Shown piece after piece: positions 13,541 to 54,688 of a stretch of DNA of 64,000 bases. How positions within the stretch are numbered: the first letter of the stretch is position 1; the number at the start of each line of letters is the position of its first letter. The stretch is from assembly GCA_002269645.1 (NCBI GenBank), contig NIVC01000319.1, forward strand, positions 1 through 64,000, written 5' to 3'. This stretch comes from Macrostomum lignano. Lineage: Eukaryota. The position numbers and the translations under genes are program-made. The notes below the pieces were generated by a model. It was not told the origin of the DNA, did no database searches, and worked only from the letters and a program-made list of their open reading frames with translations.

Positions 13541-13749
13541 CAAAATTTTAGTTATAATAAGTGATAATTAATTTCGTCTTTAAAATGAGTTAGCAGGAAA
13601 AATTGAAAATATTTAGTCAGTTTCACTCTGACCAATTGTCCTGTTGAAAGGCAGAAAAACTTATCCAAAATCAACTCTCTAAACTTGTGACGGCAAGCAA
13701 TTCATACCTTTAACAAATCATTCTCTCCTTTCAGAAACTGGCGATCCCG

Positions 13750-16700: not shown

Positions 16701-16922
16701 GCAGTCTATTTCTTCAAAGCTCCAACCGAATGGGAAGGCAGCCCGGCTGAGTCCCGAGAATCCAACAACGACTGCTTGTGGCATCCGCTTGGCCTGCCGT
16801 TCGACCAGCACGACCTGTGGCATCTGATCGGCTCGCAGGCGCTGCTCTGCCTGCTGCTCTTCGTTCTCTTCATGGACTTCGATGAAGAGCGACAGGAGCT
16901 CGCGGCAGACCGGATTTTCTGA
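13750..16922 (+). CDS. SID-1/SIDT-family transmembrane protein, paralog 1 (apparent 1-nt deficit early in coding exon 2)
   Basis: Exon 13750-15771 (donor GTGAGA), exon from 15925. Signal peptide; FYCLPVFQLV, CYYNFKC, FNNAVSNAGY, ALAMEGVLSACYHICPSHNTFQFDTTFM, SPAESRESNNDC, FDQHDLWH, DFDEE. 15925-16127 is 203 nt, one short of frame (near CATCACCCGAG, 16051-16061), unless a rare GAG acceptor at 16061 is used. Confidence 0.88.
15037..15465 (+). repeat. Coding 39-bp tandem repeat x11 (NDQPD[P/L]PVNIN[A/S]G)
   Basis: Directly visible in DNA and protein. Confidence 0.95.
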
Positions 16923-20617: not shown

Positions 20618-22260
20618 CGACCTGATGGAAAATTCCGGCTCCAATTTCGTAGTTCGAAGAGTCGCACTCCAAGAACAGCTCCGCTGCTGCATCATGCTGC
20701 TGCATCCTAAACGAGCCAGGACGTTCGGTTGGACCAGAAGACGCTTGCAGGTCTCGAAAGCCGTCTTTGGCGCCTGTCCCCAGCGCCATAGGGTTTCCTT
20801 TTTGAGCATCTGCTGAAGCGAACTCAAGACTGTCGAAAAGTTAGGCAGAAAATTTCCGTAGTAATTCACGAGACCCAGAAAACTCCGCAGCTGCGTCAGG
20901 TCCGTGGGCTCAGGCGCATCCACTATGGCTTGGACCTTGTCCTTCAGTGGATGAAGGCGGCCTTCCGAGTCAATGCGGTGTCCCAGGTACGCCACTGAAT
21001 CTTGCATGAAAGCGCACTTCCCACGGCTGCAGTCAAGCCAGCGCCCTTAAAAACGGAGAGCGCCCTGAGCTTGCTGCAGTCCTGTCCAGTGACGATGACT
21101 TCGTCCATGAATGCAGCGCAGTGAGCAACGCCATGCAGCAGGCCGTCCATGACCCTCTGGAACATGCTTGGCGCCGTCGATACCGAATGGAAGCCTCGAG
21201 TATCGAAGAAGCCCAAATGGGGGTATCTGAGAGAAGGTCTGACTCAGATTCAGCTTGGTAAACTTCTTGCCTCCGGCGAGTCTCGAGAACAATTCGTCAA
21301 TTTTTGGCAGTGGTTACGTGTCCGAATTAAAAGAAGCGTTGACGGTCTGTTTAAAATCGGCGCAAACCCGATCTGATCCCCATCCGATTCATTACAGGAA
21401 GGATCGGCAACGCCCATTCTGAGGACTTCATGAGGTACAGCACTCCCTGCAGCACCTCCTTGTTCAGCTGCTGCTCGACGTTGGTCTTCAGTGAGAACGG
21501 AATGGAGCGGGCCTTGCAGAACCGAGGCCTGACATCCGGCTTCAGCTCTATCGATAGTGGCGTGCCTTTGAATGCATCGAGGTCACCAAACACCTCGACG
21601 AGTTCGTCCAGTAGCCTGCTGGACTGCCAGTCGAGTTGCAGCTGCCGCAGCCAGTCGCAGCCGAGCAGACTTGGGCCTTGCGACTTGCTGAGGGCAATTC
21701 CAACTTACCGAGCACTTTAACGGAGTGTCCGGAGTATGTGCTCAGCTGGTCAGTTGATGGGCTTAACTCGGGGCCGCCGTGCAGGACATCCTTGTAGGTG
21801 CGCTCCGATATCAGCGACACGGAAGCTCCAGTGTCAACCTCCATACGGTACGGACGTCTGTCGATGAAAACAGTTGTGATGATCGGGGGCACAGCTTCGC
21901 TGCGCGCGGAGGCGGAACCAAGTTGATGCAGAAAGTACGGCTCGTCTTGAATTTTTTCAGCGGTTGTCGCCTCAGAAACTTGCTGCGGCTTGGTTTGGCT
22001 GAGGCTGATTTCTACAAGCCCTGGACACCTCTCCATTTTTGTGGCACCGGAAGTACTGCTTTTCGATGAACAAACACTTTTGCAACATGTGCCTTGTCGA
22101 CAGGCACCTGCTGCATCGCCTCTGATCAGCTGTATCTTGAGAACTGTATTCTCGGTCTTGCTGCTCTCGCTGGTCCCAGTGACTGATTGGTCCTGGTCCC
22201 AATGGTCCCAATGACCTTGCAGTTCTTTGTTGCCGACTCTTGTAGTAAATGGTTATCGTA
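20618..22260 (-). mobile_element. Decayed Ty3/Gypsy (Mag-like) gag-pol fragment
   Basis: Zn-knuckle remnants (C..C.STRH...C; FRCHKNGEVSRAC), protease MEVDTGASVS, RT (SEWALPILPV, RLPFG, APSMFQRVMDGLL, AFMDEVIVTG, VAYLGHRID, LRSFLGLVNYY); many frameshifts; no LTR seen. Confidence 0.85.
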
Positions 22261-22437: not shown

Positions 22438-22728
22438 TTTTAGTCAGTTGTCGGATTGCAAGTTGGGGTGGTGGTCGCTTAGTGTTGAATTTCCAATTGT
22501 CTGTGCCCGCCTGATGAGTCACCACACAAATGCAAACCAACAAACAAACCCTCACCAGTTATCAGTAGGCCGTAGGGAAAGGACAGTTATACTATTGGTC
22601 TTGTGCCAATGGTGCCACTGTCACAGTGCTGATGTTGTTGACTCGCTTTTAGCAATCCCAATCGATTCTCCAATTTGAAGTATGAACACTTGAGTTCTTT
22701 ATCCTTAGGGTAGGACCTCCAAATTAAT

Positions 22729-23305
22729 CAAATGTTTTTGAATAATGTGTTGCGGGGGTGTGCCCCTCTGACGATGACTATGATCGTTGATGTTGCTGTT
22801 GAATCAAATAAGTCGGAGGTTCGATTTGTTTCTCTCGATCTCTAACCTTCAACAAGATGTTTATTACTAATCAATGTTAGTAGCAATTCCTAATAGGATA
22901 TTGATCACGCAATTACGCAAATTTGTTAAGCAATTCAGTGAAAATGGAGCCACAGGCTACTTATCGGTATTGTTGCACGAATTGACGTTTGTCCGGATTT
23001 ATCTCTGTTAAATCGGGATATTAGAGTTCAGGCCCGATTGTTGGGGCAAGCTAGCGGAGCAGTTGAGGAGGCAAAGAGGCGGAGAGCCGAGAACCGGGAA
23101 AAAACTGGAGAGAGGCTTCATTCTCACTGAACGCTAGTATATATATGATTTCTATAACGCATTTCATTGGTGTTCGCTTCACGCAATAGGATCTTTACTG
23201 GTGCACAAGCATGTGCTGTACTTTCCTGATAGAAAAACCTTCTGAAGTTCGCATTAGACTAAAAAATAACATTGGGCATAACATGCTTAAATTAAGATCA
23301 CTTCA
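22729..23305 (-). repeat. 3' LTR
   Basis: Matches 35538-36114; on the element strand, TATATATA near 23137-23146 and AATAAA at 22860-22865; purine-rich GAAATAAGGGCAA immediately inside (weak PPT). Confidence 0.95.
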
Positions 23306-24000
23306 TTGCCCTTATTTCACAAAGCGAAGGCCCACCGAGCGGCATAAGCAAAAGAAAACAGGTGTTGGATTATTAGTGAAGTTGTAACTAATGCTACTTG
23401 CATACGAGGCGCAAGGTGTAGGCTAGAGAAAGTGGATAAAGTGGTGAGTAAAATGGTGAAAATAAGCATAGAGCATGGCTTAGGAAAGGGTATTAAATAT
23501 TAGAGTAAAGCTGTTGAAACCAAAGTTAAATGAACAGAGGAATAGCAAGGAGGATAAAATAAGTTTCAAAAGTGGCTTATTAAAGGGTTTGCTAAAACAG
23601 ACAAAGACAGATAAAACAGAGAATTTTCAGATGGACGAAAATAGGCAACAAGTAAAGTTAGAGGTATAAATAAAATTGAGTAAAGGACAGTCAAACGAAA
23701 TTGAGATTATTTCGTTTGACTGTTATAAAGAAACGACTGGGACGCAAGGTGAAAAAGAAAGCTATTTGTAATCAAGGGTGTGGAATGTACATTGTACGTG
23801 GGGTCGAAGAGATTATTGGCTTGGGGTGGGTGTTCGTAGAGCGCGTGAGTGTACACTGAAGCTAATTCAAAGGAAAGGATGGAGTCGCGTGGTATAATAA
23901 GATAAAAAACGATAGGGAGGGAATTTTCTAGTTCAGGTTTTGTCCGCAATTGTTTTTAAGTTTCGATATAGCTCGTTTATCATTCAAGTTAGATTAGTCA

Positions 24001-24255
24001 ATGGCAGGTCTGTCTTTGGGAAGAGAGCAAATTACAGAGATCGCGGCTGGTATTCTCCAGGGGCGTCACGCGTATTTCATTTCCATCAGCGCGGTCGTCG
24101 CCATCATGCTGCTGCTGCTGTTACTGCTAGTGGCGGCGTTTGTAGCCTGCTGTTGTTGCTGCAAGTGTTGCTGCTGCTTTGGCGGCTGCAGCCGCTGTTG
24201 TCGCGCACCATTGCGGCCCGCTGCAACTGCCCGTGTCCAGGAGACTGCGGTGTAA
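24001..24255 (+). CDS. Candidate antisense small membrane protein with cysteine string inside the LTR element (84 aa)
   Basis: ATG ORF; TM-like AYFISISAVVAIMLLLLLLLVAAFVA, then CCCCCKCCCCFGGCSRCCR. Lies over (GCT/TGC)-rich low-complexity DNA, so it may be incidental. Confidence 0.3.
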   Translation: MAGLSLGREQITEIAAGILQGRHAYFISISAVVAIMLLLLLLLVAAFVACCCCCKCCCCFGGCSRCCRAPLRPAATARVQETAV

Positions 24256-25029
24256 CTGCACAGTTGGTCTGCCAAGTCTTCTGCGTCCTTTGGGCGCCAA
24301 CGTCAAAACGGCCTTTTTCAAGGCCACCACGTGTCAGATAGTGCTGTTCGTCTTAGTTTTGTTGCAGCCAGTAGGGTTTCTGTAGTCAGGCCGGTGTCGT
24401 AGTTCGTAGTTAGCCGTAGTTGTCGGTAGCAGGCATGTATTCTGTTAATTCGGAGCATAGCAGGTTGTTTCCAAGTAGTAGATAGGGCTGGGCAGTGGGC
24501 CGGGTTGGTGTTGAACAGAGTCGAAGCTGAATTTCGGTCAGGGCAGCGTGTAGAGCCGGATTGCAGTGTAGAGCGGGACGGCTGTGTAGATCCGGGTAAC
24601 GCGTGGTCTTACAAAAGACCGAATAGGGATTATGAGGTGACGAAAGAAAAGATCATTGAATTCACGTGGGTGAGCAAGAGTAGAGAAGATGGTTCTGATA
24701 AATTTTTTCAAGGGTGAGTGATAGTAATTAAAGGTAAGCAAATAAAATGTAGGGCTAAAGCGTTTGACGACAACAGAATAAAACAATAATTTTGATAAGA
24801 GTGTTGAGAACTGACATTTCTACTGTGAGTAGCAAAAGAGTAGCGTATTGTCAAGGAAATTATCTAACGAAGATAGATAAGTTGAAGCGGAAAATGATAA
24901 ATTGCGATTTAAGAGGAAGAAAGATAAAATATATAATTATAAAACTAATAGAAATAATATAAACGAATATAATTTTCAAAACGTATCGATAATCAACTGT
25001 CCATCGATAATCAACTGCCGCGTATTGAT

Positions 25030-25870
25030 TCACACATCCCGTGAGCGCAGATGATATCGCACAGCTGGAATAGGTTCTAGTCCGTGCTGATCACGAGTGT
25101 CAGGCTCATCCACGACGTCAGTCTGAGTAGCGTGATGCTGTGCCAGTGGCGGGTGGTGGTCGAAGTGAGTCTGTGGTATCGATGATGTGAAGTTCGGCAG
25201 ATTGAGTTCCTCTTGTGGTTGAAAAGGGGAACGTTTTAGCTTGGAGGCATGGACTACGAATGGTGGCTCTGTCAGCTTATTAATATCCTGGATTAGCGCA
25301 TTCTGTGGGCTCAGCCATTTTAGAATTCGCATCGGTCCTCGGAACGGATTAGAGAACTTTGTCGGCTTAGTAGCAGATATGTCTAAGTAACAGCGGGAGC
25401 CTATGGTGAGCTTTTGAGCATTAGGGGCTTTTTCTTCGTTCTGTTTCTGGGCCCGTTGATCGGCTGTAGAGTGTAGGTGATGGAGAGCAATTTCTCTGGC
25501 CAATGTGATCGCTGAGCAGGTCAAGCTGATTGGTTGGATTTCCTCGGTGTAGATCGATATTTGATTTTCGAGGATTCTTGTGCTGGGTGCCAGGAAGTCA
25601 CGGGCGTAGAACAGGTAGAATGGCGATTCCTTCATGGCAGTGTGGGCTGCGGTGTTCAACGCAAGAGTCACTGCTGGCAAATATTCGATCCAGTGATCGG
25701 GCTTGTCGTGCACAAAGGTAGTTAGTGTCTGTTTGAGGTTTCGGTGGGCACGTTCTACGAAATTGCTGGATGGTTGATAGACTGATGTGTAGATCAGTCG
25801 GATTCCCATTGTGTCCATGTACTCGCGGAACTCCTTGGAAATGAACTGTGGTCCATTATCAGAATCAGAC
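25030..25870 (-). CDS. Integrase C-terminal half (second D, E, GPF module), after a 1-nt frameshift
   Basis: SDNGPQF...TSVYQPSSNFVERAHRNLK, WIEYLPAVTLALNTAAH...ESPFYLFYARD, KFSNPFRGPMRI, ending RYHLRSRDV. Confidence 0.9.
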
Positions 25871-27422
25871 AGGCCGGAAGTCCGGCTATCGCGAAGACAT
25901 GTCGAAACAAATGGTTGCAAATAGTAGACGTGGTTGTATCAGCCAGTGGTATCGTGAACAGAAACTTGCTAACACCACACTGAGCTGTCAAGATGTACTT
26001 GTACACATCTCGCATGTAATGAGCCGGTGGTAACGGTCCTACAAGATCAATAGCCAGGTGTGAGAAGACACTGCGGAATTTCATTGCTTTCTGTTCTGAA
26101 CGCAGTCGAGGTCCTGATTTGGCTTTTTGACAAATCTCGCATTTGTTAACGAAGCTTGTCACGTCTGCGTGGCAATTGGGCCAATAGTAGAATTTGCTGA
26201 GTCGGGACAAGGTTTTCTGAAGACCAAGGTGTCCTCCAAATGGAGAGGAATGGCATTCCTGAAGGAGAGCGTCTCTGTAGGCGGTTGGGATCACCAGACG
26301 TGGTGTCGACGAGTTAGGACTACGAGAGTCACCTTCCAATGGATCGTAGTAGAGTGTGTCGTTGGTGTAGTAGAAGTGGTGTAGATGTTTCGTCAGATGT
26401 TTTTGTTCTGTTTTCGATAAGTTCTTGTACATGGATGTTAGTACGTCGTCTTTTTGGTTCTGTAGAGTGGCTATCACTGTCGCACAGAATGGGTCTTGGT
26501 TTACTGCTTCGTGCAAGTTGTCAAAGGCTGGGATGGGATGTAAAGTATTCACACTAGGAATACGGGACAGGCAGTCGGCTACAGCGTTTGAGCGGCCTTT
26601 AATATAGTGGATCGAAAATTGGTAATCCTGTAGATGTAGAATCCACTTTTGCAGTCGTTTCGAGAGAGGCTGTTTGTCAGTGAACAGAGATTGCAACGGT
26701 TGGTGATCCGTGAACACTGTAAATGGTAGGTGTGAGGCGTATAGGAAAACATGGAGCTTCCGAATCGCCCAATAGATGGCATAGGCTTCTCTCTCAATGG
26801 CAGGATAACGTTGTTCCGTCGGAGTCAAAGTTTTAGAGATGTAAGCGACGGGTTGCAGATGTCCACGCGAATCGTGTTGAGAGAGGACTGCACCAAGAGA
26901 GTAGTCAGAGGCATCCGTATGAAGCACGTAGGGCTTTCGAGGATCAGGATGTACTAGTATAATATCAGTTGACAGAATCTTTCGGATGTTGTCAAAGGCC
27001 GTCTGTGTGATAGTAGTCCATTTCAAACTTTTTGTAGCCAGAGCGTCTTTGAGAGCACGAAGCAATGGTGTCACAATCGTAGAGTATCCTTGTACATGCG
27101 AGCGATAAAAGTTGGCAAGTCCGAGGAAGGACTGCAGTTGCTTAGGTGTCTTAGGTTCCGGGAAGTTCTTAATTTTTTCGACAAGCGCTGGTGCCGGTCG
27201 GATTCCATGTTCGGACACTTGAAAGCCTAGATACTGTACTTCGTTCTTTGCAAAGGTGCATTTTCTAAGCGAGATACGAAGACCGTGATGGCGGAGTTTC
27301 GCCAAGAAATGTCTGAGTTCACCCAGCATGCCATTAAAGTCCTTTGCGATTAGGAGTACATCGTCCAGGTAGGCGATAAGATTAGGTGAATCTGCTGTGA
27401 GTAGAGCGACTAGACGACACAT
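25861..27422 (-). CDS. Pol middle: RT palm/thumb, RNase H, integrase Zn finger and first D
   Basis: IAYLDDVL, KCTFAKNEVQYLG, LQSFLGLANFYR, HTDASDYSLGAVLSQ, EREAYAIYWAI, TDHQPL, SNAVADCLSR, H..GH...C..C, AIDLVGPL. Confidence 0.93.
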
Positions 27423-30400
27423 CAGCTGGGAGATGCGGCCAGACCCTGTGGCAAGCGATTAAACTGAAAAAGGAGGCCATTAGGTGCGATGAAGGCGGTA
27501 TATTTGGCGCTGTCTGGGTCTAGTCGGACTTGGTAAAACGCGTCGGCAAGGTCGCACAACGAATAAAGTTTGGCGTCGCGTAGGCGGTGTAGGAGGTCCG
27601 GTATACGTGGCGGGCGTATGCTTGGTGTTGTTAGAATTCGGTTGAGACGGCGAAAGTCAACGACAAGACGCAATTGGCGGCGTCCTTGTTCATCAAGTGT
27701 CTTCTTTTCGACCAGTAGACATGGGCTTGAGTATTCCGACTCGCTAGGGCTGAGTATTCCTTTGTGGATGAAATTCTCGATCAGTTGGTCAAAACGCTCT
27801 TGAAGACCATGTGCAATCGGAAAAGGTCGCGATGTAATTGGATGCGTATGTGGTTGAACGTTAATTGTGGCGGTATATTGAGTAGTGCATCCCATATCCG
27901 TAGGTAACAGAGCCAGCGTATCTCGGTACTCTAAAAGTAGGTCGCACAGTCTCGTAGCTTGTTCGGGTGTCAGATGCGAATTGTTAGGCCGTGTTTGTTG
28001 TTCAATTAGCTGGCGGTCGGTCTCAGGTCGTGCGTGCGAGGTAGAGATGGTATTGACTGTTGCTGTAGGTTTTGAAGTAACAGGTGTATATTCCGCGGGA
28101 TCGGACAGACTGCCTAATCGTGTTTGAGCATAGAGTGTTACTGGCTGTAGTGAAGGGTTAGCGATCTGTATGAGGATCGAATTACCCGTTTCATCTGTAA
28201 GCGTCAAGCAGCTTGCGATTAAGAGCTTATAGCGTTGAATAGTATGATCCTTTGGTATGAATAGGACAGGCTGGCGCTTTGGATAGGTCGTGTCGATATT
28301 CGCCTGTATCCAGGTGGTAGATTGAGCGGGTATGTGAGTCTGCTTTGGCAAGTAGACTTCAGCGACCTCAGTTGCTGTGTAAGTATTCAATATGGGAAAC
28401 GAAGTGCCATCGATTTGTGCTTCTGACTTGGCGTAGTCAATGGACAGTGGTATGCCAAGGGATTTAAAGGTTTCGACACCGAGAATTAGATCATAATCGG
28501 GTGGCATAGCCTCCAATATGTAAGCTGTGATTTTCCGATTTGATGATCCGATGATCATACTAAATTTAGCCTGTTTAGTTACGTTAAGAAGTTGTCCTCC
28601 TGCACATTGAACGCGTATTTTACAGGGTAAAATGTCAGCCTGTAGTTTCTGTGCGAAGGTAGGTGAAACGCAAGAGATAGAGGCGCCACTATCAATCAGC
28701 GCGGTGCACTTGCATTTGGTCATTCTTGGGCTTGTGCACCAGAGCGTGATGAGGGTTCGCATCGTAAGATGTTTCAAGACGGTGTTGTAGGCAACCGGCC
28801 AGTGTTGAAGTGTCGGGTAGAGTCTTGAATCTGTCCGTGAAGAAGTAGACGGTATAGCTGGCTGTCGTTCTTCGAGTTCCATAGGTGGAGCTGATGGGGC
28901 TGTCGCCTTTGTGTTTCTCCTAGAGGGCGAAGTAAGTACTAATGGTACTAACGACACGTGGTCGGAGGTAGTAGGAAGTCGCTGTGGGCTCCGGTTTTGT
29001 TGCGGTGATGGGTCGGTCGTTCGCATTACCATAAGGCGGTGTGTTCGACCATAAGTTAGTGTGTTGGCAACGCAGATTCGACCAATGTTGCAAAGGAAAA
29101 TTAGTAGTGCAGCGTAGACAATTACAGCAGAACTGAACAGAAACTTCTCCATATGATTCTGTTGGAATCTTTCCCAACTGAAGAAGGTAGATGTCCAAAG
29201 ATTCTGGTAAGCTTCCAAGGCGTTTAGGCCAAACTGCTTGAATTCATCCTTGTGGAGACGTCCAGTAGCGTTGTTTAGTTTAAAGACAGTGATTAGAAAA
29301 TCACGTGTTTGGATGAAACTTTCCATCATGTCAGTTATTGTTACTGGTGATCGTAAAGCGCTGTAGTTGACGTCTCCAAGTGGCGTGAAGATACTCTGTC
29401 TAATGTCGGAGTATAAGGACTGTAGGAGGTAGGTTTCGTCGGATCTATTTTGTGCTTCTATCGGACTAAAGGAGCTGAAGTTGGCTGTGGCTTTGTAGAT
29501 GAATTCACCCTTTGGAAGATAGTAGTCTCGTAGGTAACGGCAGGATATTAGTGGTGGTCTTGCTGTTGAGATGATCGATGTCGTTGTATCGAGGAATCCG
29601 AGAACAGACTTATTGTGGAGTTGAAATTGTATCGGTGGTCTTGTGTAGCATTCGTCTCGTGAGTATCGCGGTTGAACGAACTGGAACTGACTTAGTGGCT
29701 TACATTGGTGAACAAAGATGTAGCCAGCGATGGAGTGCGCATAAATGAATTTGTCAGCGAATAATTGACGCGCAGCTAGTGTCGGATTGGTATAGTATAG
29801 GTTGCGACTATAGCGAAGATTCAAAGCGTACATCTTGCACTGCGTAGTCGTCAGTTGAGTGTGTAGTTTCTTGAGATCGAGTAGAGTCTTCGATTGAAGT
29901 CCTTGTAGTTGACTGGAGAGAAGCTGTGCCGAAACGAGGTTTTCTGATAGCTTGAGTTCAGCGTTGGTGATGTTGACTGTTTTGTCTGGAGGTGGAATCG
30001 CGCGACGGATTCTGTCCTGATGTTCCAGCATTGGTGGTTGGTCGCGGTGTAGGTATGGTATATTAAGAGGATCAGGTTCCAGTATGGTAGTAGGTGTTGT
30101 AGACATAGGTCCAGGAGTTAGTTGTTCGGTGGTAATACCGGTAGATGTCGTCGTTTTCGTAGTTAGCGGACTATACGACGTAACTGTAGTTGTGGCTACT
30201 GTCGTTGGTAGAGTTGTAGACTTAAGTTGAAGAGATGTAGTGTGTTGAGGTTTTCTAAGCGACATCGTTGTTGTGGGTGTTTGAACTGTACTAGTCGCTA
30301 TTGTCGTAGTTGGTGGAGTTGTAATTTCCAGATTTAGAGGTGTGGTAGTAGATTTTTTAATTGTAGAGGTAGTGACAGTAGGCTCGGATGTAGGTGAAGC

Positions 30401-33400
30401 TGTATCAAGCGTCTGCTGTGAGGGTAGAGACGTAATAGTTGGAGCTTGAACTGTCGTCGGAATCGGTGTGGTTGACGGTTGTTCTGTGGTAGCCAATAAG
30501 TCAGGTAGTGAACGGCTCTGTCGAGAAGATGAGCTGCTGTCAGCTGTTAAAGCATCCGCGGCTTTGACAGAGCGTGTTGTGTTGCTCGTGGTGTCATCAG
30601 CTGTAGATTGCACAATCGCGATTGACTTTAAGAAGTCTTCTTCTCTGTTGTCGAGCACTTCAACGTACAGTTCTTGTTCGGAAACATATAGTCGTTTCGT
30701 TCCAATTGAGCAGGTAAGGCGGAAGGGTTGAAGCGGCAATTTAAAGGTCAAAGCCAATGTCTGTTCTTCGTTAATGAAGAATCCCGAGTGTATGTTACCT
30801 CGAATTTGTCGGAATGGCGTGAGTATACAGTCCGAACGGCTTGTTGTTTTCCACGTAAGTGTCAGTTTTCGTTGGCCAGTAACGGTCAGTTGTTGTGTCG
30901 CCGGTGGGTCGAGAGTGTCCCATGCGTTTTGAAGGAGAGTTGTCGGTAGGTTATAGCGTTTCATGTTGTCAAAGGTTGTCTCAATAATGCAGCCTTGAGA
31001 TGAATAGCTACAGTGTGCCATGGAGAAGGCTAACGATTCCATTGGTTTGCTAGGAGAGGCGAAAGCTATTATCCCTTGTATGAGTGTTGAAACTATTTGA
31101 GTTCGTGCCTTGCGATGGTAACAGTCTTCGAGGAAGGAGGTTCCTGTATTGGAGCGAGAGATTTTGTAGTTTCCAGTGGTGGCAACCAGTTGAAGCTGAC
31201 CATCAGGTGAGTTATATGATTCGGTCCAATGTTGGCAATCTTGTGCGGCGACTGTAAGTGGGCGTAAGGTTACGTACGCATCACGGAGAGAGCGCAGAAC
31301 CTGGCTCATTGGGAGGCAATTAACCGAGATTTCCTCACGGAAGCATAAGCTGACTGGTGTTCTGGTTTGCTCCAGGTTAGTAGAGTAGAGCTGTAAGTGC
31401 ACTGGTGTCGTAACGTCCTGTGACGACGTGAACTGTTCGCATCTGATCTGCTGAGGAATCTTGAAGATGCGCACGGGTCCATCTAATGGACAGAGCATTG
31501 GTGTGTCCACGTAGAGTGGATGTTGCTTAGGATTCGATGGCAGTGGTGTTGTCTGCACCGTCGGGAATAGCGATAGCCAGATGAGTGTCACGAGAAGCGT
31601 CGTTAGACCAGTTAGTCGACGTCCTTTCTGCTGAGACAGTGGTCTTTTTACGTGTACCTGCTGTCGCTGGGCACGTAGCATATCTTTTCTTAGCTTTGGT
31701 TGAGCGGCTGATAGCGTAGTGTACGGTTGAACGTGGATGACTGACAGTGTAGATGGACTGTCGCGGATTAATTTCTTAAACTGCCTGGTCGAGCCATGGA
31801 ACTTGTACTCAATTGGTCTGTCCAAAGCATAGGTTGGAGTAGCCGTTGATTTTGCCACAGGAACCTCAGTGAGACGCTGTGGAGCACTGGGTGTGCTGTT
31901 CGGTGGCACAATTTGTTGAGGCGAGTCCATAGTCGGCAGTTGTGGCATGGGGTCGTTCGAGACAACCTGAATTGAGTTTACACCGGCTGCAGGAGGGCGC
32001 GGTGACGGTGTTCTGGAACGTCCGTGGTTTGGTGAATCAGAGTGGCGTTCCCGTTGATATCGTTGAGTGGGGTTGCGCTGAAATTGTACGCGCCGGCCTA
32101 GATTATACCGCTGTGGGTTATTGTTTGTTGTTCTCCCCTGTTTAATATCGTGTAGGGTACGACATTCTTCGGTATCATGGGTGTCCGAGTTGTGAAAGTG
32201 GCAGTATTTGGCTGGAGAGCCTGTGTCTCGGCTGCGAGGATCATCGGAGCCTCGTCTGTACCGGTCTTGAATCGGTTGATTGCGTGTCCACTTAGAGTCA
32301 GCCTGTCTTGGTTGTCTAGCATTGGCAGTTTGTTGGCGTGCATTTCGAGGATCCTGGTAGCATCGATCTGTTGTGTGTCCAATCCTGTGGCAGAATTTGC
32401 ACGTTGGTGGTTCTCTAGTATTGCTAGCGCCTTGAATAGCCGCTACTATTGGCTTGGGCTTGATGGTTCCACATTCTAAGGCAGCAAGGCGTTTTTCTAT
32501 ATCGGCCGGAACGTTGTTTGGGGCCGTTAATTGTGAAGACTGCTGTATTTGTTCAAGGCGAATGGCCTGGTTGAGCAGCTGTTGTTCGGTATTCAGCGGG
32601 TTTCGCAGTAGTTCAACGCGAAGGTGAGGTAGAGCGCCACTTAGTATATGGCCGATCAATGTTTTGTTAAACATTTCATTTCGTTGGTCAATGACCGCTT
32701 GGTTAGCCGGTGCATTTTCGCCATCCACGGGTGGTAGTGGCGAGACTTCTGGGTATATGGCACGAAGTTTGCGGCGAATGTCCGTGTAGTACTGGATGAA
32801 TGGCTCACCCGGGAGTTGTCGGCGGTTGGCGATGTGATGTAGTGCCGAAGTGGATCCGAGAGTGAGTACCGCTATTCTGTCGGACAGAGACCGAACTAAT
32901 TGGGTGTAGTCATTTTGTGTCTCGGCGGGTAGAGCGGCATATTCGATCTTTAGGAGATCGTTGAGGAGCCGAGGAAAGATGCGAAGCTTTGAGTTTTCAT
33001 CTAGATTAAAAGTTCTCGCTGATAGATCATACTCCATGATGAAAGAGGCAAAATCATGAAGTTGATCTATCTCCTTGAGACCTTCGCGGATCTCGTTGAT
33101 GGTACTAGCTGGGATTGCAGCGTGTGGTCTTTGTTGATCTCGCACAGCATTGATAAATTGTTGCATTAGTGCTTCTGCCATTGTAACGTTGCTCTCAGTT
33201 TCCTGGATATTGGCGTTATTTTGATTCAAATGATCAGGTTGCAGAAGTGGCTGTGGAGGATGTTGTTCTTGTTGCTGCTCGTACAACTCAGAAGGTTGTT
33301 CTTCGTCTCTGGTGCCGATGGCAGTGTTTTCTTGATGGAGGCCAGGTAGATGGCAAAATGTAGCTGGGGTAGCTGTTTGTGTTAGTTGCTGTTGGGTGTC

Positions 33401-33586
33401 GTCAGTATGGTGTCCTCCAATGCCAGTAGAATGTCCACCAATACCAGTAGAATGTCCACAAATGCCAGTAGAATCACCAGAAATATCAATAGGATTTTCA
33501 GCGACACCGGCAGAATTTGGTGTGGATATTGCAGGCGGCTCTTGTTGTTGTTGTTGTCCGAGTTGGGTACCAGAACGCAATTTCAT
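27422..33586 (-). CDS. 2054-aa ORF: Gag - internal signal - envelope-like glycoprotein - TM - aspartic protease - RT N-terminus
   Basis: Gag with CKFCHRIGHTTDRC (32360-32401) and CHFHNSDTHDTEEC (32162-32203); hydrophobic LTGLTTLLVTLIWLSLFP (~31555-31615); Cys-rich ectodomain, Thr-rich stretch, RIRR (30002-30013); TM FLFSSAVIVYAALLIFLC (~29085-29145); LIDSGAS (28685-28693); SPCLLVEKK, LRLVVDFRRLN, DLADAFYQV, FNRLPQGL. Confidence 0.93.
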   Translation of the reverse strand: MKLRSGTQLGQQQQQEPPAISTPNSAGVAENPIDISGDSTGICGHSTGIGGHSTGIGGHHTDDTQQQLTQTATPATFCHLPGLHQENTAIGTRDEEQPSELYEQQQEQHPPQPLLQPDHLNQNNANIQETESNVTMAEALMQQFINAVRDQQRPHAAIPASTINEIREGLKEIDQLHDFASFIMEYDLSARTFNLDENSKLRIFPRLLNDLLKIEYAALPAETQNDYTQLVRSLSDRIAVLTLGSTSALHHIANRRQLPGEPFIQYYTDIRRKLRAIYPEVSPLPPVDGENAPANQAVIDQRNEMFNKTLIGHILSGALPHLRVELLRNPLNTEQQLLNQAIRLEQIQQSSQLTAPNNVPADIEKRLAALECGTIKPKPIVAAIQGASNTREPPTCKFCHRIGHTTDRCYQDPRNARQQTANARQPRQADSKWTRNQPIQDRYRRGSDDPRSRDTGSPAKYCHFHNSDTHDTEECRTLHDIKQGRTTNNNPQRYNLGRRVQFQRNPTQRYQRERHSDSPNHGRSRTPSPRPPAAGVNSIQVVSNDPMPQLPTMDSPQQIVPPNSTPSAPQRLTEVPVAKSTATPTYALDRPIEYKFHGSTRQFKKLIRDSPSTLSVIHVQPYTTLSAAQPKLRKDMLRAQRQQVHVKRPLSQQKGRRLTGLTTLLVTLIWLSLFPTVQTTPLPSNPKQHPLYVDTPMLCPLDGPVRIFKIPQQIRCEQFTSSQDVTTPVHLQLYSTNLEQTRTPVSLCFREEISVNCLPMSQVLRSLRDAYVTLRPLTVAAQDCQHWTESYNSPDGQLQLVATTGNYKISRSNTGTSFLEDCYHRKARTQIVSTLIQGIIAFASPSKPMESLAFSMAHCSYSSQGCIIETTFDNMKRYNLPTTLLQNAWDTLDPPATQQLTVTGQRKLTLTWKTTSRSDCILTPFRQIRGNIHSGFFINEEQTLALTFKLPLQPFRLTCSIGTKRLYVSEQELYVEVLDNREEDFLKSIAIVQSTADDTTSNTTRSVKAADALTADSSSSSRQSRSLPDLLATTEQPSTTPIPTTVQAPTITSLPSQQTLDTASPTSEPTVTTSTIKKSTTTPLNLEITTPPTTTIATSTVQTPTTTMSLRKPQHTTSLQLKSTTLPTTVATTTVTSYSPLTTKTTTSTGITTEQLTPGPMSTTPTTILEPDPLNIPYLHRDQPPMLEHQDRIRRAIPPPDKTVNITNAELKLSENLVSAQLLSSQLQGLQSKTLLDLKKLHTQLTTTQCKMYALNLRYSRNLYYTNPTLAARQLFADKFIYAHSIAGYIFVHQCKPLSQFQFVQPRYSRDECYTRPPIQFQLHNKSVLGFLDTTTSIISTARPPLISCRYLRDYYLPKGEFIYKATANFSSFSPIEAQNRSDETYLLQSLYSDIRQSIFTPLGDVNYSALRSPVTITDMMESFIQTRDFLITVFKLNNATGRLHKDEFKQFGLNALEAYQNLWTSTFFSWERFQQNHMEKFLFSSAVIVYAALLIFLCNIGRICVANTLTYGRTHRLMVMRTTDPSPQQNRSPQRLPTTSDHVSLVPLVLTSPSRRNTKATAPSAPPMELEERQPAIPSTSSRTDSRLYPTLQHWPVAYNTVLKHLTMRTLITLWCTSPRMTKCKCTALIDSGASISCVSPTFAQKLQADILPCKIRVQCAGGQLLNVTKQAKFSMIIGSSNRKITAYILEAMPPDYDLILGVETFKSLGIPLSIDYAKSEAQIDGTSFPILNTYTATEVAEVYLPKQTHIPAQSTTWIQANIDTTYPKRQPVLFIPKDHTIQRYKLLIASCLTLTDETGNSILIQIANPSLQPVTLYAQTRLGSLSDPAEYTPVTSKPTATVNTISTSHARPETDRQLIEQQTRPNNSHLTPEQATRLCDLLLEYRDTLALLPTDMGCTTQYTATINVQPHTHPITSRPFPIAHGLQERFDQLIENFIHKGILSPSESEYSSPCLLVEKKTLDEQGRRQLRLVVDFRRLNRILTTPSIRPPRIPDLLHRLRDAKLYSLCDLADAFYQVRLDPDSAKYTAFIAPNGLLFQFNRLPQGLAASPS

Positions 33587-35523
33587 GCAATGATCTGTGG
33601 AATGGGTTTACTTCGAGTGGTCTTGCAATTAAGAGTTGAAAATATAATCCGCAATTTTGTAACAATAAAGATTTGAAATAGTGTGAAGCAATAGCATCTG
33701 AGCGTGATTTGCGGTCATCTATCCAGGGTCAGTTTTTTGTTTTATATAAGCAAATTTTCAATATGTAGAGCTTCGGTAGCTGTAGTATCAATTATCAAAA
33801 GTGTGAGTTTAGAGCAATTTTGAGCAAGTGTTGAACAGTTGTATAAAGTAGAACTGAGTAGAGTCGGCTGATGCGCCTGTACTAATTATAATATAGCTCA
33901 GCGGTGGAGCGGTTAAAATATTTCATAGAAGCAGCAAGAAAAGCTGAGCCTCATCCTTGGATTGAGTTTGATTAGAATTTGAACAGATTTCGGTAGAAGA
34001 TTCAGCGGAGGCGGCAATGTGCGCGTTGATTGATGCCTTTGAGATTGAACGGATTGGCGTTGAAAACTCAGCTGGTGAGTTGTGGTTAAGATGCCAGCGG
34101 ATGTGGCGATGCGTGTTGAGTACGCGATTTGAATTTGTTGTAAAAGGAACGAAAGAGACTCTGCAGAAGTCTGTGGAAGCAAGGCAGAGGCGTATGAGTG
34201 GCGTGCCAAAACTTCAAACTTGGAACACGATGAGCATGAACCAAGCACCAGTCCTGGGTTTAAGTGTGTAATTGACAAATAGATTCGGCCGACTAAAATA
34301 GAATTATAATTACCTGAAGGCAGGTGTAGAGGTCCTGTGTATAGGACAAATTGCCGCGGGCTTATCGCTGCTAATCATGAAGAAATGATGTGGCTGCTTG
34401 AAATTGAGAAACAAGGAATAGGGAATAGGAGAGGGTGGGTAGCAATCACAGCGTAATTTTTATTTTGTTTTGAGAAATTTTGAACGACTGCGAAGGCTAA
34501 AGGGCTGGTGTATGGGTAGACGAGGGTGGTAGGTTGTACTTTGCGGAGAAGGAAAGCGGATTGTAGTATAAATAAGAGCTTGGGACGGAAATTATTCCCA
34601 TTAGAGAACAATGGGGGTTTCTGATGGGAAAGCCCAAGGAGGGGGAGCAGCCATTGAAACAAAAATGAATTCCCTGGGGTAAGAGAAGATTGAGAGTACT
34701 GAGAGTGTCGCACCGGTGTGACAGAATCATTCTCCCTCACTTTCTATCCCTGGGGATGAGAATTGCAGCGGAGAGAAGAGCTGGAGCGGATCACAGCTGA
34801 ATTGTGGTAGGGCGTTGAGCCAACTGAGTGAGGCGCGGAGCCGATAGGGCGTTTTAGCCAACTGAGTGAGGCGAACTGAGGCCAGTTGAGGCTGGTTTGT
34901 GAACTGATGCAGACCGGAATGGAACTAGAATTTCCAGAAGACGAAAAACGATGCAGATCTGCTGTGAACCAGCCGGAGTAAAGGCGGAATTCTCCGGACG
35001 AGAACTGGTTTTGCGAGGCTAAAAATAGAAAAAGGATTGAGACAATGCTGGTTGCCTGGTTGGGATTTGTCGCCCAGGCAGGATATTTATAGAACAGAGT
35101 GAGATTGTGGAGAAAGAGCAAGGTGAACTTGACGTTCTTTGAGGTGAGGCGAGCAAAGTACTCGGAGAAAGTATATCAGAAGGGCGTAAATAGTGGGAAT
35201 GGGTGGATTCCCATCGGAACCGGTTTGAGGACTGGTTCGCTGCTGGTTCTCCGAAGCGGGAGAGCGATTAGAGGTTGTAAATTTAAGAACATTAAATAAC
35301 ACTAATCTTTTCTACGATTCTACAGCTTGGGAGAATCATACACGTAGTATTATTGTAGTTTTGCAAATTGTATTGGTTTTTATATTTTGTAATTTTTTAA
35401 TTTTTATATTTTTTACTGACCCTTTCTAAGATGCCATCACTAGCTCATAGCCAGCTCCACGGAGGTGTTCACCCCAGCATATTGAAGCCGGGCATGTTGA
35501 AGGAAATTACGGAGAGAAACAAG

Positions 35524-35535
35524 GTCGGGGAGCCA
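35524..35535 (-). promoter_or_regulatory. Primer-binding site complementary to tRNA-Asp 3' end
   Basis: Element strand reads LTR-AC-TGGCTCCCCGAC; the complement GTCGGGGAGCCA is the 3' end of metazoan tRNA-Asp(GTC) as I recall it. Confidence 0.8.
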
Positions 35536-35537
35536 GT

Positions 35538-36114
35538 CAAATGTTTTTGAATAATGTGTTGCGGGGGTGTGCCCCTCTGACGATGACTATGATCGTTGAT
35601 GTTGCTGTTGAATCAAATAAGTCGGAGGTTCGATTTGTTTCTCTCGATCTCTAACCTTCAACAAGATGTTTATTACTAATCAATGTTAGTAGCAATTCCT
35701 AATAGGATATTGATCACGCAATTACGCAAATTTGTTAAGCAATTCAGTGAAAATGGAGCCACAGGCTACTTATCGGTATTGTTGCACGAATTGACGTTTG
35801 TCCGGATTTATCTCTGTTAAATCGGGATATTAGAGTTCAGGCCCGATTGTTGGGGCAAGCTAGCGGAGCAGTTGAGGAGGCAAAGAGGCGGAGAGCCGAG
35901 AACCGGGAAAAAACTGGAGAGAGGCTTCATTCTCACTGAACGCTAGTATATATATGATTTCTATAACGCATTTCATTGGTGTTCGCTTCACGCAATAGGA
36001 TCTTTACTGGTGCACAAGCATGTGCTGTACTTTCCTGATAGAAAAACCTTCTGAAGTTCGCATTAGACTAAAAAATAACATTGGGCATAACATGCTTAAA
36101 TTAAGATCACTTCA
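35538..36114 (-). repeat. 5' LTR
   Basis: Matches 22729-23305; abuts the PBS. Confidence 0.95.
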
Positions 36115-36604
36115 TTAATATGCCGGATAAGCTTGTTTATTTGAAAAATTTAAATTAAAATGAGACCAGATTTTCAGTAATTGTTTTAAGGTAGTATTGA
36201 ATCTACCTTAAATTAATCTTGATCTTAAGAGATTGAAGCAAAATTGCCAAATGCTTGAAGCTGTACGAGCTAGTACAATGTTATAATTATGACGAAAACG
36301 AATTTTAATTGTACATGTACATGTAATAATTGAGTCCTCGCAATAACAGCTTGTCTTTACGAGGCACAGGACAATGCCAGAGTACAAAACGAAGGGTCCA
36401 AAATGACGCTTGTCATACGCGTCATACGAGATACATGTAAAACAAGCATTAATATAACTTTAGTATAGGTCAAACTAGATATGAATAGAGGTTAGCTAGA
36501 GTACATAATAAAAATAACAAAATTTCAATGTAATAAGACTAAAATATAGAAAACAATTCGACACGTTCACAACTCGTTTACACATTCTGTGAACAGACCC
36601 AAGT

Positions 36605-43100: not shown

Positions 43101-43304
43101 ATTTGTGTCTTTGAAAGGAATTAGCAGAAAAATAGAGAAGAGCTAATCAGTTTCGTTCTGACTAACTGTCCCGTTAAACAGACTGTCCTGTTAAACAGAC
43201 CCGTTAAAACTTATCCGAAATCAACATTCTAAAGCTAGTGCAGACAAGCAATACATACCCTCAAGTCAAGCAATCATTTCCCCTTTCAGAAACTGGTGAT
43301 CCCG

Positions 43305-43688
43305 ATGACTCCGCTGATCTCAACGCTTAGGCTGGTGCTGTTGCTGGCATTCCTGATTCTGCCATCGCAACCAGCTGCAGCTCAAACTCAACCGATACTT
43401 CCGCTTGGTCAAGCCCGCAACTTTTCCATCAGCTCTAAACGCGCACTCGAAGTTCTTGTGAAATATACTCAGCCTGAAAATGAAACTGTAGCTCTTCGAT
43501 TGGAGACGACCAGCTACTCGAATGCGTCGCTTCTTGTGGTCGTCAGGCAGCAACTGACACTGCACACCTGGTCGCTGCCATACACCTTTGTTGATGTGAG
43601 CAGCACAGGCGATCAGAGCACTGTAGAGAGCTTCCAGTCGGTGACCAGGACCATCTGCCCACCGCATCTGAGTACTCAGACACCTGAT

Positions 43689-43719
<31 letters not shown>

Positions 43720-46035
43720 TGTATCTGCGGGTGACTACCGAGTCAGCTGCGCTCGTCACTGTGAGTGCTAGAGCTCAACTCGCTTCGAATTTTCGACTGT
43801 CGCTTGGAGAGCCGGTTCAGGTTCTGCTGCAGCCGTCCGGTCCGCAGCTCTTCTTCTTCGACTTCAACTCAAGCAATGCGAACGTCACGGACCTGAGAGC
43901 CGTCCGCATTCTGGTCGAGTCGAACGACTCCGCATGCGGTTTGGTGTCCGTGCAGAGAAGCCGCTGCCCCGCAGACCAGGTGCCTCCGTCCGTGCTCCAG
44001 CGAGGCTTCAGACAGACGCTGCTGTCCAGCTCCATCATCTTGATGAGGCGCGACGAGTTTAATTCCAGCTTCCTTGTGGTGCTGACGGCGTTTCCGGACA
44101 ACCGAAACTGCCTTGCCAATTGGGAGCAGGAGCAGCGACAGCGGTTTCCCAGCAAGAGCGTCACGATCAAGGTTGAGCAGATCGCCATGCACGACTCGGA
44201 GGAGTGGGCACTTGTTGGTTTGACTTTTCTTTTAGGTGGAGTAGACTGTGCTGTGGCAATAATTTTTACCTTCGTTTACGCTGCGGATTTAAATTCTTTT
44301 GTTGAAAGCTCCAAAACATTTTTTTTCATATTGGTTTTTGTATTGCTCATATCACTCTCTGTGATGAGTTTCACTCTTTCCTTCGTTGTTTTGCTTTTTT
44401 GGTTTTTCAAAAAGCTACTCTGTCTTTTAGTCTTGCTTGGTGTAGGCTTTTTAAGTGCTTTTCTGGGATATCGGTTTAGAATTTTAAAAAAAAAACGCAT
44501 TGGGCAAACTATATTGAAATTGAAGAGAAAGAGCGTGATATTTTTTGTGACTGCGGATGCCCTTGCGGTTGGAATTACAGTTTCAGTTTGTACTGCATGC
44601 ACTGCCAGTGCTGCGGCATCGACCAGCTCGACCCTCCTATAAAAACCGATGCTGGCAACCAAGAACAGCCAGAAAGGCAGCAACAACAGCCTCATGCAAG
44701 CCTTGTAATGCAGCTGACGGCTGTAGCTATCTTCTACTGCCTGCCAGTTTTTCAGCTGGTGCTGCTCCAGCAGGACTCCATCAGCTCCTTCGGAAACTTG
44801 GATGAGTGCTACTATAATTTCAAGTGCCGCTTTTATGTAAAAACAGAGCTGACGACATTTTTTGCATTCAACAATGCGGTATCGAATGTGGGCTACATAA
44901 CGGCCGGAATAGTGTTCATGGTGGTTGTCCTTTGGAAGCAACTTTTCCATGACAAGCCACAGGTGAGATCACTGGTTAGCCTAAGTACCCTAAAGTACAT
45001 GTGAAGTTCAAAACAAAGTTGTTGCCCTTAAGTAAACTTTTTTCTACGCTCCGGCAGCGCTGACTAAAGCTACCAAATGCTTTTGCATCTTATCTACTTT
45101 AGGCAACTGTTCAAGGATCAGAAGAGCATCATACGAATACTGAGAATGTGCAACTGCTCCCACCTGAGCCCCAGATCGCCAGACCGGTCGTCATTCCTCG
45201 CTGCTACTCGGCTCACTACGCCGCCGGTCTGGCGCTGGCCATGGAGGGCGTGCTCTCCGCCTGCTACCACATCTGTCCGTCGCACGACACCTTCCAGTTC
45301 GACACGACCTTCATGATCATGCTTTCCAGCATGCTGGGCCTGGCTGTCTACAGCAAGCGGCACCTCAGCTCCGGCTCGGTCGCCAACGTCACCTTCGTTG
45401 CGTTGGGCGTCACGGTGCTGGTGAACTCGCTGGGCATTCTGTTCTCCTTGGTTAGCCGAGAATTCGTGTTTAGCGTGCTGGGTGTTGTGCTGCTGCTGCT
45501 GGCTGTTATTGCTTTGATCGTTCGGAAAAAGCAGTTGTTGCAGAATTTCCTTACGTTCTTAGCTGCTTTTGTCTGTTTTGCCGCTGGAATCGCCAGTTTT
45601 CTAGTTGGATTTCTACATGAACATTTTCTATTTGCAAATTTCCTTCTGGCTGTGACTGCCGGATCTGCAAGTCTATACTTCCTTTATTACTGCATTCGAA
45701 AGTGTTGCAGAAAGACGAGACCCAGGGAAAATATGCCACTTGGAAAGCTCCGCTGCCGAGGAACTGCTGTGGTCTTTTTTTTCCTGCTTTTTGTCAGCTT
45801 TTCCGTCTGGGCCGCAGTCTATTTCTTCAAAGCTCCAACCGAATGGGAAGGCAGCCCGGCTGAGTCCCGAGACTTCAACAACGACTGCTTGTGGCATCCG
45901 CTTGGCCTGCCGTTCGACCAGCACGACCTGTGGCATCTGATCGGCTCGCAGGCGCTGCTCTGCCTGCTGCTCTTCGTTCTCTTCATGGACTTCGATGAAG
46001 AGCGACAGGAGCTCGCGCCAGACCGGATTTTCTGA
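43305..46035 (+). pseudogene. SID-1/SIDT-family paralog 2; frameshift at an A10 run (pseudogene or assembly error)
   Basis: Exons 43305-44962 and 45103-46035 (GT-AG, phase 0). Frame breaks at TTTTAAAAAAAAAACG (44482-44497); adding one A gives KTHWANYIEIEEKERDIFCDCGC and continues to SACYHICP and HDLWH. Confidence 0.8.
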
Positions 46036-50316: not shown

Positions 50317-51604
50317 TTCTCTGGTTCAGGTTTGCAAAAATCAGACCCAGTAACTAAAAACAAATATTGCCAGATCAAAACTAGTAAAAAGCGAAGTAAA
50401 ACTCTATTAGTTTACTTTATCAGTAGTAATATTGTCAGGTTGCTCGTTCTGTCTCTGAAAGACAGAAATAAAATTCCAAAGGTGTAGGCTATATAAGTTT
50501 GTTGCTGTCATTCGTCCACCGCCCTTCTTACTTAGCCAACGGAATAGATTATTTTTACCTGCAGATAGCTGCAGTCCAGTTAGCAAATGATAAAGTTGCT
50601 TGCGATGTGTTTAGATAGATATGGCGCCATCTTCAGTGTGAAAGATGGAGCTGTTTTGTTACCAGTAAGTTCTGTCCCTATTGACAGCTAGTCTGTGGAG
50701 TGTACTTTCTGTGCACACTGCAACAGCTGAAGCTACAAGTGGTTTTAGAGCTAGACGCTCAGAATTCTCTCACTAGTTAAATTACGAGTATTATATTCAG
50801 AATAAAAAACAGAGCACATTTCCCTTGCTTTGAAGACTCTACCCTTCTCGAATTATGCCAGTATATTTTGCGTACTCGACTAGCTAAAGAAGGTCTGCAT
50901 TATGTAAGTTACGAGTTACGTATTTCCACGTCAATCTATGATAACTTACAACGTGGAATGTTTTTATTAGCACCTTTGTCATCTCGTTTCGACATTTCGT
51001 AGCACAGCTGCCAGAATACTGGTAAACTAGATATGTTCCTCGCAAATATTGAAAAAGCAGAGTCTACTTTTTCCGTGGTTGTCTGCGCAGTGTCACGTAA
51101 ATTTGACGCATTGTGACGTATCTAAGAGTTATTACAGTTTATAAATTATTTTTGACAAGTAGGAGCATATGTCTCTAGAAAAAGTAATTAAAAGTTGTCC
51201 GCTAATGCCATGCAACTTAGAGTGAGGATCACTCTCTTGCGCGTTGTGACTGAGACGAAAACGTTCTATCGAAAATTTGAACAAAACCTTAATTATCGTT
51301 CGAACGGATGTTGGGGCAGTGGAGATGCAGGGGCAAAGGGGTGTTAGGGCAGAGGGGTTGTTGAGGCAGAGGGGGAGGGGGTGTTATGGCGCAAAGTTAT
51401 AGTAATATTAATAGATAGTTAATTGCATCTTTAAAATTAATTAGCAGAAAAATGAGAATATTTACGAGTAGTCAGTTTCGTTCTGACCAACTCTCCCGCT
51501 AAACAGGCTGAAAAACGTACCCGAAATCAGTTCTCTGAGCTAGTGCAGACAAGCAATTCATACCTTCAAGCAATCATTTTCCCTTTCAGAAACTGGCGAT
51601 CCCC

Positions 51605-54600: not shown

Positions 54601-54688
54601 GCAGGCCCTGCTCTGCCTGCTGCTCTTCGTTCTCTTCATGGACTTCGACGAAGAGCGAAAGAAGCTCGCGGAAGACCGGATTTTCTGA
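51605..54688 (+). CDS. SID-1/SIDT-family paralog 3, intact 2-exon CDS
   Basis: Exons 51605-53680 and 53819-54688, phase 0, open throughout; SACYHICP, FQFDTTFM, SPAESRDFNSDC, FDQHDLWH retained. Confidence 0.92.
52931..53370 (+). repeat. Coding 39-bp tandem repeat x11 (ADHAERPENNDAV)
   Basis: Near-perfect units, preceded by one degenerate unit (SDELEPPENINAV). Confidence 0.95.

Follow-up and report, generated by a model that had tools for sequence, protein, structure and literature searches.

A gB-type envelope gene with a mucin-like insert in a young Gag-Env-Pol retroelement of the flatworm Macrostomum lignano

What is a glycoprotein resembling herpesvirus gB doing inside a long open reading frame (ORF) of a flatworm genome, and how did it get there? 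The question is raised by a 64,000-nucleotide stretch of Macrostomum lignano DNA (contig NIVC01000319.1, assembly GCA_002269645.1; hereafter the window), whose minus strand, on which all features of the element described here lie, carries a 2054-aa ORF (27422..33586) with an embedded glycoprotein. A first-pass annotation had read this glycoprotein as a class III fusogen and proposed that it had been acquired from a class III donor virus of this host lineage. Our analysis indicates that the glycoprotein region is probably env in a GAG-ENV-POL Ty3/gypsy element (an errantivirus in the wide sense) that is young and multi-copy, and that it encodes a gB-type fusion protein. Going by excerpts of Chary & Hayashi (eLife 2026, PMC13524379), gB-type ENV is the only kind present in errantiviruses of Nematoda, Bryozoa and Platyhelminthes, their gene order is GAG-ENV-POL, and this env is argued to be ancient; the table of that paper holds nine flatworm entries, one of them from M. 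lignano (Mlig_errantivirus_2). A gB-type env in a flatworm gag-env-pol element is thus already in print, while the searched literature held no counterpart of the two features reported here, a mucin-like insert flanked by two furin-type motifs and remodelled fusion-loop positions.

The assignment to class III begins with short motifs, each found at the place where the first-pass annotation had put it. QLQ-x21-C-x16-NPT-x25-C runs from 29911 to 29702 (ORF residues 1226-1295), with CYTRPPIQF at 29650, GFLD at 29599, an LCP-led Cys series from 31495 and RIRR at 30013. The spacing given there for the gB central helix is borne out by the Epstein-Barr virus (EBV) gB chain in our profile alignment, which reads Q-I-Q, x21, C, x16, N-P-T, x24, C. 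The strict motif has a single occurrence in the six frames of the window; when the 2054-aa ORF was shuffled 20,000 times, a relaxed form turned up in 8 of the shuffled versions, a figure that serves as a guide only since the motif was picked post hoc. The N-terminal part is Cys-rich as described, and 12 of the 14 ectodomain cysteines are conserved (in 23-46 of the 25-46 rows covering them in a 46-row alignment), consistent with a conserved disulfide pattern; the cysteines at residues 757 and 822 are found in just 3 of these rows.

Profile searches, Foldseek and VIA-align all support a class III, gB-like fold, the fusogen class originally suggested. With a profile of 17 insert-free relatives, 10 of 10 PDB matches were herpes gB (best 4.9e-13), and with the 46-row profile including the window protein the first 21 matches were gB (best 2.6e-20, both halves covered), the lower ones being aspartyl proteases that stem from flanking columns. 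AlphaFold, run on the 46-row alignment, returned a predicted local distance difference test score (pLDDT) mostly >85 at ectodomain residues 20-320 and 550-700, with residues 325-535 disordered. All 32 PDB rows listed by Foldseek were gB (best 2.4e-14), and its BFVD matches, with Midway nyavirus G at the top (4.9e-20), comprised nyavirus, rhabdo-like, chu-like, gB and entomopoxvirus proteins. VIA-align over 48,161 chains ranked gB from 1 to 6 (Z 7.3-10.8), followed by Chandipura G and Bourbon virus GP; the top match, gB of herpes simplex virus (HSV) 1, had Z 10.8 with 436 residues aligned at a root-mean-square deviation (rmsd) of 12.1, and a second VIA-align gave Z 12.8, 412 aligned and rmsd 10.2 for HSV-2 gB. 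No class I or II fusogen or host protein heads any list, the only such matches in VIA-align being to PH domains of ~90 residues below the class III rows.

The Env ectodomain (29153..31546; fold from the AlphaFold model and VIA-align) can be divided along gB lines. Domains I-II, with a fusion domain nested in a PH-like domain (30596..31441), were modelled separately as an N-half (pLDDT 83), for which gB again ranked first (HSV-1 gB 138-456: VIA Z 9.1, 215 aligned, rmsd 7.3); Chandipura G followed with Z 6.5 and 198 aligned, and PH domains were also matched. The 49-residue central helix of domain III (29789..29935; H543-591 in the model) aligns with the EBV gB core helix, the element that builds the coiled coil in gB, and the beta region of domain IV, the crown (29459..29788), which holds CYTRPPIQF and GFLD, matches pseudorabies gB domain IV (VIA Z 10.3, 169 aligned, rmsd 4.1). 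The Pfam family Monjiviricetes_fusion (PF24664) was found in 13 of 17 relatives, and the C-half of the window protein matches it at 4.9e-4, below the family cut-off; the best ESM Atlas scores (0.86 and 0.88, to Monjiviricetes fusion clusters) are leads only. A three-copy trimer prediction of ectodomain residues 536-800 scored 0.00 in two runs in which the alignment was unused and the fold of the piece itself uncertain, and it speaks neither for nor against a trimer. A profile comparison with San Jacinto virus G was discarded as circular, as that protein sits in the alignment. Taken from alignment and model, Env almost certainly has the class III (gB-type) fold and would, by analogy of structure, drive membrane fusion.

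The ORF that bears env is part of a 13,387-nt (13.4-kb) long terminal repeat (LTR) element. Its 578-nt LTRs (5', 35537..36114; 3', 22728..23305) have the termini TG...GA and are identical (0 differences), and a 4-nt target-site duplication, TTAA (22724-22727 and 36115-36118), flanks both. The primer-binding site (35523..35535) is complementary to the 3' end of the host tRNA-Asp(GTC), to which 3 of 3 tRNA-Asp loci scanned in the host genome (G000) correspond, and a purine-rich tract (23306..23319) precedes the 3' LTR here as in all eight 3' LTRs examined. According to the ORF list and Pfam, the 2054-aa ORF encodes Gag, an internal signal, Env, a transmembrane anchor, protease (PR) and the start of reverse transcriptase (RT). 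The Gag region (31652..33586), for which the window copy gave no Pfam Gag match, holds two zinc-knuckle-like motifs (32360-32401 and 32162-32203) and aligns with the N-terminal part of the ORFs in 20 of 20 sister loci scanned. It is followed by a basic-hydrophobic segment (residues 648-680; 31547..31645), which its hydropathy suggests is an internal signal peptide, presumably cleaved there; a hydrophobic segment preceding env was seen in 9 of 12 relatives scanned and went undetected in L043 and in two ORFs that start downstream of it. The transmembrane anchor (residues 1483-1505; 29072..29140) is present in 12 of 12 relatives scanned, and the ectodomain is bracketed by hydrophobic segments on both sides, as judged by hydropathy only. 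A retroviral-type aspartyl protease with DSGA (28463..28711; Pfam Asp_protease_2, 1.6e-6) and RT, RNase H (RH) and integrase (IN) complete the coding region, the last three spread over three frames in the window copy (25030..27874; Pfam RVT_1, RT_RNaseH, Integrase_H2C2 and rve). The order PR-RT-RH-IN together with RT_RNaseH and Integrase_H2C2 fits Ty3/gypsy and excludes copia, while Bel/Pao is left without direct exclusion. The leader from primer site to Gag start (33587-35522) is unusually long at 1.9 kb and contains one 153-codon frame without a Pfam match.

Sister copies show what an intact element looks like. The top database match, P0003, a 2852-aa M. lignano protein, has the same env and reads on through RT-RH-IN, and sister copies hold Gag-Env-PR-RT-RH-IN in one frame. 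The host genome contains 127 env matches, down to ~25% identity; the gB-type gag-env-pol elements thus form a radiation of several families, far above the one entry in the published table. An identical env C-half occurs at 8 places, 4 of them in open frames of at least 2859 aa, and as L008/L069 and L082/L083 are copies on different contigs with common flanks, the eight are probably seven insertions in a redundant assembly. The members of LTR pairs are 0-4 substitutions apart in 8 of 8 cases, and the family was therefore inserted very recently; 4-nt target-site duplications accompany all eight LTR pairs and all 12 solo LTRs examined. Moreover, the 29 LTR copies examined (including L001-L008 and L067-L086) all end in TG...GA, not TG...CA, with clean 4-nt duplications of varied sequence. 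The U5 end of this still-inserting element is thus non-canonical.

Both env halves are also maintained in the sister families. Rough NG86 estimates of the ratio of nonsynonymous to synonymous change (dN/dS) between two copies of a mucin-bearing sister family were 0.15 for the env N-half, 0.12 for the C-half, 0.30 for the mucin-like insert and 0.02 for PR and RT, and env in a mucin-free family gave 0.07-0.12; dS was saturated in most comparisons between families. Env in the sister families is under purifying selection. The gene was detected in 18 of 24 sequencing runs listed, whose RNA status is a guess only. Contigs of 4 runs span the whole internal region, one of them (11.5 kb) bridging 24037-35561 without a skip. 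No env-removing joint with splice-type ends was seen in the run contigs, though contigs cannot show the absence of splicing; the one large joint, 25210/30951 in run X5, equals a genomic deletion copy. That copy type is seen in L076 (G000:C1356:207400-215140), which has two LTRs and a 5740-nt internal deletion, retains Gag, the signal segment and ~200 Env residues, and is possibly a non-autonomous derivative; its deletion joint had a depth of 86 in the X5 contigs versus 82 for the full form.

The feature that sets this Env apart lies in the loop between domain II and the core helix. RIRR had been noted as a furin-type site ahead of the helix where gB is cleaved, and it does occupy the same loop as in gB of human cytomegalovirus (HCMV; excerpts of PMC4617298), but the annotation made no mention of another R-X-X-R motif upstream, from which a Thr/Ser/Pro-rich stretch of 166 residues separates RIRR. 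The upstream motif RQSR (30512..30523), of minimal furin type, has RPSR and RQKR at the same position in two sister families; the mucin-like insert (30014..30511) consists of 31% Thr, 10% Ser and 14% Pro, has no Cys and is predicted to be disordered (pLDDT <50); and the downstream RIRR (30002..30013) is matched by R-X-K/R-R in the linker of all host-genome families examined. In three families the paired motifs bracket the Thr-rich stretch (RQSR/RIRR, RPSR/RIRR and RQKR/RNKR), where the linker measures 234-366 Thr-rich codons versus 22-57 codons with one R-X-K/R-R site in insert-free families. The insert itself spans ~170-250 residues across this clade (166 in the window copy). Among 44 distinct places with both anchors (50 loci, minus 4 repeats of others and 2 without an anchor), 28 have the long linker and 16 lack it.

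The insert by itself might be low-complexity sequence that expanded neutrally because a disordered loop tolerates it, with an A/C-rich coding strand favouring the process and the second R-X-X-R as a relic. The coding strand is indeed 60% A+C, the linker varies from 234 to 366 codons, one family holds tandem Thr/Pro repeats, and in HCMV gB this loop also ranks with the most variable regions (excerpts of PMC4617298). On the other hand, Thr reaches 31% in the insert, compared to 9-18% in four low-complexity stretches elsewhere in the ORF; three families, with synonymous sites saturated or nearly so, have retained both flanking motifs; and the insert has a dN/dS of 0.30, a figure that the alignment of low-complexity sequence flatters. 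We consider neutral expansion a minor but not negligible possibility. A DNA search with 601 nt of the insert matched only 8 element copies, in a search that skips simple repeats, and thus gave no sign that the insert was recently taken from a host mucin. Two unrelated retroelement envs, P0033 (~57-175) and P0029 (~380-445), have non-mucin inserts at this place in the loop, ~120 and ~65 residues long and likewise flanked by a pair of R-X-X-R motifs; neither insert gave a Pfam family. No mucin-bearing retroelement or class III envelope was found in the searched literature, which did not extend to subscription papers. One could imagine the gB cleavage loop as an exchangeable cargo slot, whose passenger, with a furin-type site on either side, would be matured and shed along with the spike, but we hold this generalization to be doubtful.

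The structure model has two hairpin-tip loops at the places expected of bipartite fusion loops, located by DSSP and alignment columns: position 1 (residues 757-768; 31283..31318) has no aromatic residue and position 2 (residues 812-827; 31106..31153) has two. The three mucin families have 2, 1 and 2 aromatics at these positions, whereas 22 other rows range from 3 to 9 with a median of 6.5; the mucin families also have in common an extra Cys pair at the bases of both loop positions. gB fusion loops rely on exposed Tyr, Trp, Ile and Leu, at least in HCMV gB as covered by excerpts of PMC4617298. Env of the mucin clade, while keeping the class III fold, might thus no longer be a stand-alone fusogen and instead serve as a polyprotein membrane scaffold or a glycan-covered adhesion or shielding spike, with entry (if any) provided by Env of mucin-free sisters. 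Besides the aromatic-poor loops and the clade-specific Cys pair, the large insert and the numerous mucin-free families with aromatic-rich loops in the same genome speak for such a loss. However, both env halves are constrained as strongly as in the mucin-free family (0.12-0.15 vs 0.07-0.12), no core cysteine has been lost, the downstream furin-type site is retained, and 4 of the 22 mucin-free rows also have just 3 loop aromatics. Aliphatic loops may suffice. Loss of fusion appears unlikely to us, and we retain the reading of Env as a gB-type fusion protein. It is no more probable that, as an extension of the cargo-slot idea, the mucin passenger was gained together with aromatic-poor, possibly disulfide-linked fusion loops in the flatworm clade; the three related mucin families represent one evolutionary event, which makes the co-occurrence of loops and insert a description and not a statistic.

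How, then, did the element come by its env? A capture in this host lineage from an infecting nyami-, chu- or herpes-like virus, as the first-pass annotation implied, would agree with Midway nyavirus G as the best BFVD match, with San Jacinto virus G as a direct sequence match (2.4e-7) and the single match named as a free virus, and with the env tree (33 rows; 13 of 46 rows with <55% of columns covered were dropped, insert columns excluded, midpoint-rooted), in which all 12 host-genome rows and one further protein form a clade (98/96). In this tree, however, San Jacinto virus G lies outside the host-genome clade on a long branch, and it is 19% identical to the window env versus 22-60% for host-genome families. 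The three mucin families form a clade (100/99) that is sister to L043/L044. Under the midpoint root, the tree points to flatworm envs grouping with other retroelement envs and not inside a virus family; a retro-protease or zinc-knuckle motif is carried by 15 of 35 other database matches, and in P0012, P0019, P0020 and P0023 a gB-type env likewise stands between Gag and protease. The arrangement is also reported from three phyla, with an ancient origin argued, in the excerpts of PMC13524379. A FastTree of RT-RNase H (22 rows, midpoint-rooted) recovered the same family groups with a support of 1.0, the mucin families again forming one clade (1.0). The same groups in both trees and the diversification of env within the genome therefore fit a long co-descent of env and pol and not a fresh capture.

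Capture within this lineage is thus very improbable, and that part of the earlier proposal is not supported; env was, we infer, inherited with the element over a long time. A genuine, ancient relationship to class III proteins of viruses exists all the same, whichever its direction and date. The nearest matches outside the host genome, P0004 and P0006, are fragments starting downstream of the cleavage loop. A word-based search with alignment A1 returned 0 matches among 5942 candidates, probably since the words came from flanking Gag columns, and a search of metagenome contigs with P0004 ended with 87 pattern matches, none of which was confirmed as a relative.

Several points weigh against our account in addition to the scarcity of aromatics at the fusion-loop positions. 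A single-sequence PDB search with the window protein had 0 matches. The whole-ectodomain AlphaFold model reached a predicted template modelling score (pTM) of 0.53 with a whole-chain rmsd to gB of 9-12 Å, and its domain arrangement is therefore unreliable, the class still being reliable. The upstream cleavage motif is a minimal R-X-X-R in two of the three mucin families, the deep order of families in the RT tree has a support of 0.56, and fusion, particles and processing are deduced from sequence and models. Furthermore, pol of the window copy has two frameshifts, one in RT and one in integrase. The two frameshifts (25030-27874) were unseen in the contigs of 4/4 and 3/4 runs, respectively; they may be private to the window copy or assembly errors.

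If the account holds, the polyprotein would be threaded co-translationally into the membrane of the endoplasmic reticulum, with Gag cytosolic, followed by the internal signal peptide and lumenal Env, while behind the stop-transfer anchor PR-RT-RH-IN would hang from Env's cytosolic tail. The three products Gag, Env and Pol would then be made 1:1:1 and at first be membrane-tethered. Signal peptidase might then separate Env from Gag, the element protease release the enzymes, and furin cleave the domain II-III loop. In the mucin clade this loop would hold an O-glycosylated mucin-like segment, which could serve the spike as a shield or, given cleavage at both R-X-X-R, come off as a glycopeptide; p27 of respiratory syncytial virus (RSV) F is a peptide released by double cleavage. 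Finally, Env trimers on budded particles could fuse with a new cell and move the element between cells or worms. A mucin passenger and remodelled loops, if true, would suit an enveloped retroelement moving in mucus or seminal fluid between animals.

The surroundings of the element contain three tandem genes of the SID-1-like (dsRNA channel) family at 13714-16922, 43239-46035 and 51539-54688, with long exons and a 39-nt repeat within the coding region, and the element is placed between the first and the second. An aspartyl-protease remnant (21548-22252, minus) lies just beyond the 3' LTR. Farther away are a ligand-gated ion channel transmembrane exon (1795-2610), an uninterrupted 360-codon frame of the mandelate racemase / muconate lactonizing enzyme family with a GC content of ~60% (3912-4994, minus), and two long minisatellite arrays in inverted orientation, ~3.4 kb apart and foldback-element-like (58488-59241 and 62077-62987).

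Among known systems, the free-virus glycoproteins nearest to the window Env are G proteins of Nyamiviridae and other Monjiviricetes, namely San Jacinto virus G by sequence and Midway virus G by fold. The linker of San Jacinto G, however, is 79 residues long, contains a single RKKR and lacks a mucin, and these G proteins are encoded by negative-strand RNA viruses. Nematode non-canonical endogenous retroviruses, the subject of Sacco et al. 2022, reportedly have env before pol, a continuous gag-env-pro-pol frame and a nyamivirus-like glycoprotein, the last in agreement with the nyavirus matches of the window Env. The design of a mucin-like domain or of a peptide between furin sites is familiar from class I proteins, namely the Ebola GP mucin and RSV F p27. 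With herpes gB (HSV, EBV, HCMV), Env shares the domain order, the Cys/NP spacing of the core helix, the crown domain and a furin site in the loop that leads up to this helix (excerpts of PMC4617298), whereas identity in structural alignments is 9-17%, the loops of the window Env are less aromatic and it sits inside a retroelement polyprotein. In the same excerpts the HCMV gB loop has ~33 residues and one furin site, compared to ~230 residues and two motifs in the window Env. The words 'envelope' and 'glycoprotein' are absent from the main text of PMC12801592 on M. lignano LTR elements, a paper that presents the worm as a cultured, transgenic-capable model; with young mucin-bearing and mucin-free families side by side in such a model, particle formation and the role of the insert can be asked directly. 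The main text of PMC13524379 lacks 'mucin', 'polyprotein' and 'fused', and its figure supplements may bear on loop features. Its errantiviruses share with our element the Ty3/gypsy pol, a gB-type five-domain env between gag and pol, the flatworm host and many near-identical copies. However, Mlig_errantivirus_2 has LTRs of ~864 nt, a length of ~10.6 kb and another primer site, compared to 578-nt LTRs, 13.4 kb and a tRNA-Asp site here; since LTR length and primer site differ, the window family is not Mlig_errantivirus_2, and the element adds one more family to the known gB-type gag-env-pol group.

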